A DNA stretch of 32,207 nt from a virus, in the UHGV virus genome UHGV-0183840, one strand, 5' to 3'. A program made the position numbers. Shown piece by piece: positions 6,005-9,000 of this stretch; positions within the stretch are counted from its first letter, which is position 1; each line of letters starts with the position of its first letter.

Positions 6005-9000
6005 ACCCGCTCCAGCAGAGGACGATGCTAGGCCGTTTCAGGCACTGACACATTATATGTGTGGGATGTTTTTAACCTAACTCCTTACCACATCCTGTTC
6101 TGTAATGAATATTATTTATTACGGTACCAGTGCTGTTTTTTTACAATAGTGGAATGGTGCATTACTGGTGGAGATTTGTATTTCCTGGCAGGGCTGGTAA
6201 TGTATCATTCCGGTGTTGTAAATGACACCCCAGAGACGTTCCTCAGTGCGAGGGTGGTTGAAAGAGTCGGTTTTGCGGGAAACCACAGCATCCATGCAGG
6301 ACTGGATGTTTCGGGAGGCACCCGACGTCTCTGGTCATAATAAAATCATCGTGTTCTCTTCATGCCATTTTATGCCATAGACCGCCACGCCAGGCGGTTT
6401 TTTTTTATTCAGAATTCAGTATTTATGCGGCTCGCTACGGCGGGCCTTTTTCATATCCGCGCCACGCCCGGCGAATATCAAAAACCACAGAGCCTTTCAG
6501 GGGTGAGCTTACGGGATGGTCAGTGTGACTTTCTCTGTGGGCTGGTCACCCCCGGGCGCAGGCTCACCCACTAAAAGGAAAAGTCACGATGTTTGGTATT
6601 TTCAAAAAGAAAACCCGCAAGGCCATTACTGAAGTGAAGAAGATGGAGAACCGCGACGCAGTGGAGGCGACTGTCTGGGGCGCGTATTCCATAGCATTCG
6701 CCGACGGCACCTGTGATGCGAAAGAAATCGCTGTGCTGGAGAAAACCATTGCAGCACTTCCTGCTTTTGCGCCGTTCTCGGGTGAGATTGCACAAATGAG
6801 TGCAAATATCCGCGCCCGTTATGAAGCGTCGCCGCGTTCTGCCAATGCTGAAGCCCTTCGCCAGCTGGCTGATGTTGCCGGTACTGATGATGCAGTTAAT
6901 GTACTGTGCCTGTGTCTGGATATCGCAGACCAGGATGGCATTGGTCCGGATGAAGAAGCGCAGCTCAAGAAAATTGCTCAGGCGCTGCAGTTACCGCTGG
7001 AGCAGTACCTGTGAAAAGTGCGCGCCTTGTGCTGGCTGCCATCCTGCTGTTTCTGGTAGTGGCGGTGGATTTCACCGGACGGCTGATGTCGGTGCTGGCA
7101 GATGGTGTGCTGGTGGCGATGGCGCTGGTCGTGCTCCGGCCTTTACTGCGTAAATCTGAATAACACCACACAAAAGGCATCTGCGGGTGCCTTTAACGGG
7201 GTGTTTTTTACGGGCCGCTGGTGGCCCTTTTTTATTTACAGGAGAAAAAAGTATGTCTGAACCCTTATCCGGTTCCGGCACGGCTGCGGCGCTCGGTGGG
7301 GCGACGGTGTACGGGCTGTTTACCGGAACGGATTTCGGGATTGTGTTTGGTGCGTTCGCCGGGGCGTTATTTGTGGCAACGATGCCGCAGGCGCTTTCAG
7401 CCTGGCGTGTGGCGGCGCATTTTCTGGTGTCGTTCATTATCGGCGTGCTGGGCGCAGAGGTTCTGGCATCCTGGCTGGTAAAGCATACAGAGTTTGACGG
7501 TGCACCTGTCGACGCATTGTGTGCAGTACTGGTGTCAGTGGTGTCGGTGAAGATTCTCTCGTTCATCCACCAGCAGGATATTGCATCGCTGGTGTCCGGC
7601 CTGTTCTCCCGCCTGCGGGGTGGAGGAGGCGGCAATGTTAAGTAACCTTCCCGGATTACTGAATGTGGCGTTATGCACGGTTATCGTGCTGACGCTCTTT
7701 TTTTATCGTCGCCGTGATTCCAGACATAAACCGCTGATGTCATGGCTGGCCTGGCTACTGATGCTGCTTTATGCCTTTGCACCACTCAGCTATCTGTGTG
7801 GTCGCCCGTTAGCGGCGAACTGGCTGGCGGTGGGGCTTAATCTGCTGTTCTGCGTGTTGGTGATTCGCGCACGCGGGAACGTTTCAAAAATCTTTGTATT
7901 ACGAAGGCGCTGATATGAAGTCGAAAGATGAAATTTTTGACGAAGTTCTGGGAAAAGAGGGCGGTTACGTCAATCACCCGGATGATAAAGGCGGACCGAC
8001 AAAATGGGGTATTACTGAAAAAGTTGCCCGTGCGCACGGATACCAGGGCGATATGCGTGATCTGACGCGCGGACAGGCGCTGGAAATACTCGAGGCGGAC
8101 TACTGGTATGGACCACGTTTTGACCAGGTGGCAGCGTTATCCCCTGATATTGCCGCAGAGTTGTGTGATACGGGCGTGAACATGGGGCCAACCGTGGCGT
8201 CAAAAATGCTTCAACGCTGGCTTAACGTTTTCAACCTGCGCGGAAAACTGTATCCGGATATGGATGCTGATGGACGCATCGGGCCGCGTACTCTTAATGC
8301 GCTACGGGCATATATGAAAAATCGTGGCAGGGATGGCGAACTGGTCTTACTAACCGCGCTGAACTGTACGCAGGGTGACCGTTATCTGGAGCTGGCAGAG
8401 AAACGCGAGGCCAACGAGTCGTTTGTCTATGGCTGGATGAAAGAACGCGTGGGAGTGTAGTTGAAATTCCACTTTTCAATGAAGTCGGTAAATCCACTTT
8501 GCAGATAGCACGACATTAGACTTACTGAAAAAGCAAAACCCCGGCTGGGGGAACAGTCCGGGGTTTTCTGTTTCTGACCTTGGGTAAGGCAAAGTAGAAC
8601 ATGAGGAAGTATAAACCAATTCTGTTGAGGTTGACTATGAAAAACGGCCTTGAATTGAAAGCGCCTGTAACTGATGACATCAGCAGAGCGGTGGCTTTTG
8701 CCATTAAGTGGGTGGCTGTCGGTATCGCTGTGTCTCCGATTCTGTATGGGATGGCAAAATTGATCATTGCTGTGAAATCGTAAGTGGTGCGGGGGTAAAT
8801 ATGTCAGATAGCATCATAAAACTAGCGAGGATTCTCTGTGTGGTTGTTGGCCTTTCATTTTCAGTGATGCTGGTTGCCATTTTCATTGCTACTGCCTGGA
8901 GAGTCTTGAGCTTATCTGGATTGATTGGTGGATAGCTGACATGAGCCGAAAACACTGGACACACAGAGTGCCGCGAACGGCGGCGAAATGGGCACTGGTA

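Follow-up and report, generated by a model that had tools for sequence, protein, structure and literature searches.

Among described systems, the closest relatives of the gene pair treated here are found in phage P1. Its genome record (GenBank AF234172) annotates the genes tciA, tciB (a DUF3927 protein of 54 amino acids, aa) and tciC (35 aa), which belong to the C1-controlled ban operon, stand between tRNA genes and have their equivalents in terB/upf69.4/upf69.6 of phage P7. On the host side, passages in PMC11003894 and PMC12054061, both citing Turkovicova 2016, describe TerB as interacting with the membrane protein TerC, and place it at the inner membrane. Two preprints (bioRxiv 10.1101/2022.05.11.491447 and 10.1101/2025.09.30.679545) treat TerB as membrane-associated, propose membrane surveillance as its task and report TerB domains in the defence systems Shango, Bunzi and Dionysus. 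We analysed UHGV virus genome UHGV-0183840, 32,207 nucleotides (nt) long (the window; positions refer to it unless another record is named), which is an E. coli lambdoid prophage. Judged from its sequence, the two-gene locus at 6589-7163 is the lambdoid-prophage form of the P1 tciA-tciB accessory module. The pair is already known, widespread and annotated (in PHROG, Pfam, RefSeq and the P1 genome), and as a sequence feature it is nothing new. What emerges is a sharper picture of an obligate paired unit that is apparently promoter-less and Q-dependent in lambdoid phages, occupies the slot of Shiga toxin (Stx) genes and has a swappable membrane anchor. TerB domains occur in several validated anti-phage systems, and a minimal two-gene module of TerB plus anchor is common in phages themselves.

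The likeness to P1 is close. TciA (gene at 6589-7014, plus strand, 141 aa, ATG start) is 85% identical to P1 TciA, it is followed by a DUF3927 TciB (gene at 7011-7163, plus strand, 50 aa, GTG start) with overlapping stop and start codons, and tRNA genes are adjacent in both phages. The window differs in lacking tciC between tciB and the holin gene; terminators begin at the tciB stop codon and leave no room for a tciC-like open reading frame (ORF) there. Positions 6400-7300, used as a 901-bp query that spans the leader, the gene pair and the holin start, are 99.9% identical to the chromosome of strain STEC308, and in a 99.9%-identical locus RefSeq names the two products "tellurite resistance TerB family protein" and "DUF3927 family protein". 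Of 5426 complete E. coli genomes, 581 contain a match to the query, and in 155 the match covers 80% of the query or more. A preliminary description of this DNA had considered the pair unusual, which does not agree with the P1 module, the existing names in PHROG, Pfam and RefSeq or these counts. A second TciA subfamily (41-43% identical) sits in the same slot of prophages of the enterohaemorrhagic E. coli (EHEC) type. Further, the module is found in virulent N4-like and jumbo phages, and some defective E. coli prophages have it too. Literature on TciA/TciB, on DUF3927 and on the RefSeq accessions yielded no functional study.

One database entry may be mentioned in its own right. The record PP818812.1 ("Actinobacillus phage vB_Apl-pPE4") shows 96% DNA identity to an E. 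coli prophage region, encodes a TciA 100% identical to that of the window, and also carries Hok and E. coli-type lysis genes. Its assignment to Actinobacillus pleuropneumoniae as host looks doubtful.

TciA is a cytoplasmic, all-helical protein with a TerB domain. With 30.5 bits it exceeds the gathering score of Pfam TerB PF05099 (24.4). Its homologues carry a precomputed PF05099 assignment, and PHROG 632 ("tellurite resistance") is matched at 1e-64. When the single sequence was compared directly with the PDB by phmmer, no TerB chain came up, only spurious PNPase matches, and a profile search was therefore needed. The profile of 56 homologues finds the solved Klebsiella TerB 2JXU at E=2.2e-12, with positions 13-137 aligned to 19-144. 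The AlphaFold2 (AF2) model has six helices (predicted local distance difference test, pLDDT, 88.8; predicted template modelling score, pTM, 0.83), and TerB-like folds rank first when it is compared with known structures; the predicted fold is thus the all-alpha one of TerB. The protein is soluble. The bipartite TerB-like pattern that the preliminary description had noticed by eye is real: it corresponds to two acidic D-G-x5-E motifs (D39/G40/E46 and D116/G117/E122), which are at least 90% conserved among the 56 homologues. G40, E46, G117 and E122 keep this level of conservation even among 92 distant homologues of about 22-41% identity. This duplicated motif is a putative metal site. The protein begins with a conserved basic peptide, MFGxFKKK, and its first approximately 20 residues are strongly conserved (K7 invariant, M1 and G3 nearly so); they are modelled at low confidence, with pLDDT 47 for residues 1-10 and 74 for residues 11-20. 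The gene has a Shine-Dalgarno sequence, AGGA, at 6576-6579, and a ratio of nonsynonymous to synonymous polymorphism (pN/pS) of 0.085. We also considered DjlA as the identity of TciA. It was rejected: NCBIfam gave a sub-threshold DjlA match only (14.4 bits against a cut-off of 162), and the protein ends after the TerB domain, with no J domain.

TciB is a translationally coupled membrane helix of the DUF3927 family, 50 residues long. Its start codon overlaps the tciA stop as GTGA, and its own Shine-Dalgarno sequence, GGAG, lies at 6999-7002, 8 nt upstream of the start. The protein has a mean Kyte-Doolittle hydropathy of 1.4, reaches 53.5 bits against Pfam DUF3927 (PF13064; gathering score 25), covering positions 4-48 of the 53-position model, and matches PHROG 1470 ("TciB-like") at 2.5e-24. 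Its core motif reads LLFLVVxVDFTGRLMSVLADGVLVA. In frame, pN/pS is 0.45, as opposed to 0.71 and 1.12 in the two other frames. The GTG-initiated hydrophobic ORF that had been picked out from the sequence is thus a real conserved gene under selection. In the AF2 model it forms one continuous helix over residues 2-48 (pLDDT 93), with conserved D20, R24 and D31 in its middle and basic residues at both ends. TciB may cross the membrane as a single span or as a hairpin.

Phages of very different kinds have inherited the two genes as one unit. In a set of 85 loci (80 IMG/VR contigs and five phage and E. coli loci), a DUF3927 ORF stands directly downstream of the tciA relative in every case, with an overlap of 4 nt in 77 loci and of 1 nt in 8; the GTGA junction is common to 88 loci. 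A reverse search that started from two DUF3927 proteins found tciA directly upstream at nearly every place, intact in 9 and frameshifted in 3, with one 289-bp fragment too short to tell. Because the loci search, run with a narrower alignment, yielded no relatives below 90% identity, distant phages were sampled individually. This sample comprised ten phages with TerB proteins 28-42% identical to TciA. A recognisable TciB-like ORF follows TerB directly in five of them, namely Erwinia jumbo phage Caitlin, Pseudomonas phage phiK7B1, P7, Pantoea phage LIET2 and the N4-like FSL SP-058 (hidden Markov model E-values 1e-6 to 1e-22). In the Pseudomonas phages Zuri and AF this place is occupied by a different small membrane protein, with an N-terminal transmembrane segment and a shared C..YG.QTERET.YA.FVGCMV motif. 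In Zuri it is gp47 (1943-2146 of locus L094); in AF the ORF (1932/1956-2153 of locus L089) is unannotated and overlaps the TerB stop by 4 nt. The distant phages thus indicate that the conserved unit is a short TerB together with a small membrane protein, and that the anchor was exchanged at least once, since some Pseudomonas phages carry an unrelated one.

A separate observation concerns some Cronobacter-type loci (L105, L106 and L109), where tciA is frameshifted near codon 5-18 and tciB is intact. As a result, the gene caller reports either DUF3927 alone or a TerB of 123 aa truncated at its N-terminus.

In lambdoid phages the pair is part of a cassette in which a terminator and a conserved leader precede tciA and tciB and two terminators follow them; consensus scans found no promoter in it. 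A terminator scan of 5700-7700 gave 7 terminator-like sites, where 2.4 +/- 1.6 are expected. The preliminary description had named two terminators behind the pair. Both are there, only the first one begins at 7162, about 20 nt before the 7183 that had been given for it. It is a compound plus-strand hairpin (7162-7203, followed by U6 at 7204-7209) which starts at the tciB stop codon and has an inner stem of 7173-7181/7186-7194 and an outer stem of 7162-7167/7200-7205; its fold of -22 kcal/mol (z=-5.3) was equalled by 0 of 200 shuffled sequences. The second one (7212-7227, plus strand, GGGCC-GCTGGT-GGCCC, then TTTTTTATTT with the T-run reaching to about 7237) ends 15 nt ahead of position 7253, where the holin gene starts. 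Both are conserved in phage P27, and the second is also kept in locus L098, ahead of a different type of holin. The pair was rightly called insulated, and two additional hairpins upstream, absent from that description, complete the flanking. The first of them (6379-6400 plus T9, to 6408; plus strand; AGACCGCC-loop-GGCGGTTT; -12.6 kcal/mol, z=-4.0) probably ends transcripts from the tRNA genes. The other (6429-6446 plus TTTTT, to 6451; plus strand; GGCTCGC-TACG-GCGGGCC; -14.7 kcal/mol, z=-2.5) is where, according to an alignment of 58 distinct upstream regions, the block that accompanies tciA in lambdoid prophages has its left edge, and it has equivalents in L098 and in another locus, L005.

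Between this edge and tciA lies an untranslated, conserved plus-strand leader of about 137 nt (6452-6588). A 182-nt stretch, which consists of 170 nt before the ATG and 12 coding nt and also spans the 6429 hairpin, keeps 85-92% identity even next to the divergent tciA subfamily, whose proteins are only 41-43% identical. The leader contains a perfect 8-nt inverted repeat, CCACAGAG (6487-6494) and CTCTGTGG (6534-6541), with which a second one, GGGTGAGC/GCTCACCC, competes. We considered a structured RNA, for which the signals are too weak: the fold has z=-1.4, the covariation term of RNAalifold is -0.62 and 2 of 40 predicted pairs are compensatory. Rfam, searched over 5600-7400 at gathering thresholds and at E<=1, returned the two tRNAs and chance matches only, none of them a family for the leader. 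The leader could serve as a linker in recombination or as a cis element that has so far escaped recognition.

Consensus scans found no sigma-70-like promoter at 8 or more of 12 matches in 6380-6600 or 7100-7262, nor in the equivalent region of L098. Promoter-like sites are present at 2475-2504, where Q ends, and at 5722-5750, ahead of the tRNAs. The layout of terminator, leader, genes and terminator is repeated in L098, with its different holin family, and in phage JLK-2012; in P1, no terminators flank tciABC. Since no promoter was found and terminators stand on both sides, we infer Q-dependent late expression, and tciAB would then not be a classical self-expressed moron. The designation as a moron is thus the other point where we part from the preliminary description: a downstream terminator is present (7162-7237), and an own promoter was not detected in 6380-6600 by the consensus scans.

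The cassette sits between the region of Q, methylase and tRNAs and the holin genes, that is, just upstream of the lysis genes, as had been described. A holin of the Phage_holin_8 type comes directly next in 52 of 75 close loci, others having an S-type holin or yjhS, and tRNA genes are found at most 1.5 kb upstream of tciA in 47 of 81. The same module is flanked by different Q families and different lysis cassettes. Its position had been likened to that of toxin genes in Stx phages, and phage P27 bears this out. In this Stx2e phage the order is methylase, tRNAs, stxA2e/stxB2e, a tciB remnant, both hairpins and the holin. The remnant (approximately 3960-4160 of AJ298298, locus L002, matching 7069-7237 of the window) preserves the 3' two-thirds of tciB with a 1-nt gap. 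This shows that the stx2e cassette replaced tciA and the 5' part of tciB, and that toxin cassette and tciAB occupy the same position. In the P27 record, part of the remnant is overlain by L27, a hypothetical gene annotated on the opposite strand. Another observation is that tRNA genes adjoin tciA-type genes unusually often, on both sides in P1 and P7 and also in JLK-2012, the window, Caitlin and phiK7B1; this adjacency may reflect nothing else than a shared accessory-gene region.

What could such a pair do? Taken as a whole, the explanation that we regard as reasonably probable is a P1-type module, Q-dependent in its lambdoid form, in which TciA tethered by TciB acts at the inner membrane during lytic growth. 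After induction, tciAB would be transcribed along with the lysis genes, mainly by polymerase that Q has modified and made resistant to terminators. By analogy with TerB and its membrane protein TerC, TciB would tether or partner TciA at the inner membrane. The pair would then act on the membrane or ion state of the phage-producing cell. For example, it could keep the membrane energised until programmed lysis, or block the entry of pore-forming colicins or of other phages. Tellurite resistance of the lysogen is probably not conferred. The module occurs in virulent phages and in a repressed early operon of P1, which makes a membrane-tethered TerB unit serving the lytic cycle the best supported reading and speaks against roles that depend specifically on the holin or on lysogenic conversion. 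The effects on lysis timing, membrane stress or exclusion that had been suggested from the sequence are guesses. Several observations weigh against the tethered unit. The names and functions of the P1 tci genes were assigned "by homology" only, and a CRISPR interference (CRISPRi) screen found P1 tciA, tciB and tciC non-essential. The single 47-residue helix predicted for TciB contrasts with the basic residues at both its ends, which fit a hairpin. Three of the ten distant phages (PMBT3, phiM5 and Vibrio phage BUCT194) have no small membrane ORF after TerB. The proteins P0051, P0247 and P0305, apparent TerB-DUF3927 fusions that would have been Rosetta-stone evidence, turned out to be single-base frameshift artefacts of the 4-nt overlap and are lost as evidence of interaction. 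Moreover, if the strongly conserved leader holds a promoter that is weak or not of the sigma-70 type, simple consensus scans could miss it.

Lysogenic conversion, counter-defence and lysis timing are less likely rivals of this tethered unit. In the case of lysogenic conversion, a moron expressed from the prophage would give the lysogen resistance to tellurite, colicins or phages, as the ter operon does. TciA does belong to the TerB family, and passages in PMC8123226 and PMC9603915 link the ter operon to phage inhibition and to resistance against tellurite and colicins; as in a moron, terminators stand on either side of the cassette, which lies in the toxin slot and is kept in many E. coli prophages, some of them defective. 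The leader, however, shows no promoter-like site in the consensus scans and has two terminators directly upstream. Neither the ORFs of the window that were scanned nor the equivalent region with its annotation gave a match to TerC or TerD; TerC-TerD is reported to be the minimal tellurite-resistance unit (PMC12054061). The module is also present in strictly virulent phages and is C1-repressed in P1. We hold a lysogenic moron to be rather unlikely. As a regulator of lysis timing, TciAB would modulate holin triggering in the manner of an antiholin, which would explain its place upstream of the holin. A holin does follow directly in most lambdoid loci, of the Phage_holin_8 type in 52 of 75 and of other types elsewhere, and a small membrane protein is co-transcribed with the holins; but the pair is not beside the lysis genes in P1, P7, N4-like and jumbo phages, and the occurrence of the same tciAB before unrelated holin families argues against a specific protein partner. 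We consider such a regulator improbable.

Counter-defence, to which we give a similarly low probability, would mean that the phage TerB, together with its membrane partner, acts as a mimic or a titrant of the TerB-based membrane-surveillance defences of the host (the Phi phenotype of the ter operon, Shango, Bunzi or Dionysus) and so lets the phage complete its lytic cycle. TerB domains are indeed part of validated defence systems, including Dionysus, which targets jumbo phages; TciA-like genes occur in jumbo, N4-like and other virulent phages, and expression appears to be lytic-phase. Against it, PADLOC at E<=1 gave no match for TciA or TciB, whose neighbours are tRNAs and holins, so TciA is no close copy of the defence TerBs in that library. 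The dispensability of P1 tciABC was seen on the tested host and speaks against this role too, although that host may lack the relevant defence. A somewhat broader proposal, that TciA-TciB is a counter-defence or exclusion device at an inner-membrane process monitored by host TerB systems, seems to us a long shot, if a slightly better one. If it is true, a helix-held TerB could blind or pre-empt membrane surveillance during lytic growth, and this would explain why TerB plus a small membrane protein is found in temperate, N4-like and jumbo phages with at least two unrelated types of anchor. Finally, the 50-aa frame could be a chance ORF next to the only real gene, that of TerB: it is short, begins with GTG and encodes a low-complexity hydrophobic sequence. 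This is effectively refuted by the DUF3927 score, its own Shine-Dalgarno sequence, the frame-specific substitution pattern, its retention in 85 of 85 loci and its conservation after TerB genes only 30-40% identical to tciA.

The tciA-tciB pair is embedded in the following gene order. The Q antiterminator (2147-2506) and a DNA methyltransferase (4649-5695) precede tRNA-Thr (5861-5936) and tRNA-Gly (5940-6014). About 575 nt without annotated gene separate tRNA-Gly from tciA. Behind tciB, Pfam identifies two holins, of the Phage_holin_8 (7253-7645) and Phage_holin_3_7 (7581-7913) families, and a GH108 endolysin (7894-8460). Lambda-like head genes and P2-like contractile tail genes lie beyond the lysis genes. 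Two antisense ORFs (2519-2905 and 3155-4066, both on the minus strand) are located between Q and the methylase, within the late transcription unit. For the longer product (302 aa) Pfam gives no match, but PADLOC gives one at 2e-53 to its candidate defence system PDC-S42; the shorter one (127 aa) matches nothing but PHROG 26468, a group of unknown function. In the matching STEC308 prophage, this place is taken by ORF6N and OB-fold genes. The 365 nt or so from tRNA-Gly to the first terminator (6015-6378) are without an annotated gene in all matching E. coli genomes and contain neither a credible ORF nor an Rfam match. A 574-nt query spanning this region was covered to at least 80% by 38 genomes, and in the closest prophages among the matches listed the region is at least 97% identical. 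Because it is conserved and ends at a strong terminator, it is possibly an unannotated small RNA.

How tciAB compares with the named systems can now be stated. P1 tciABC stands in the C1-repressed ban operon without flanking terminators, and the pair in the window stands in a lambdoid Q-dependent late region between terminators. The pair of JLK-2012 and of PPyecE_EH1910-type EHEC prophages shares the slot, the leader (85-92%), the upstream terminator and the DUF3927 partner; it differs in a TciA that is 41-43% identical and in a yjhS (nanS-p-like) esterase gene which precedes the holin. TerB of the ter operon (terZABCDE), as represented by 2JXU from Klebsiella, has the same domain over nearly its full length (approximately 150 aa), the same N-terminal extension and the same duplicated acidic D-G...E motif. 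The partner of TciA is, however, a 50-aa helix and not the multi-pass TerC, and TerC, TerD, TerZ, TerA and TerE are not encoded near tciA. SngA of Shango, BnzA of Bunzi and DinB of Dionysus likewise combine a TerB domain with membrane proteins and a proposed membrane surveillance. These are multi-gene systems encoded by the host, and the partners are of the ATPase/helicase or pore-forming kind, whereas tciAB is carried by phages, virulent ones included. DjlA consists of a transmembrane segment, a TerB-like domain and a J domain. TciA has no J domain and its anchor is a separate polypeptide, yet a TerB-like domain tethered to the membrane follows the same logic as the one we propose for TciA anchored by TciB.

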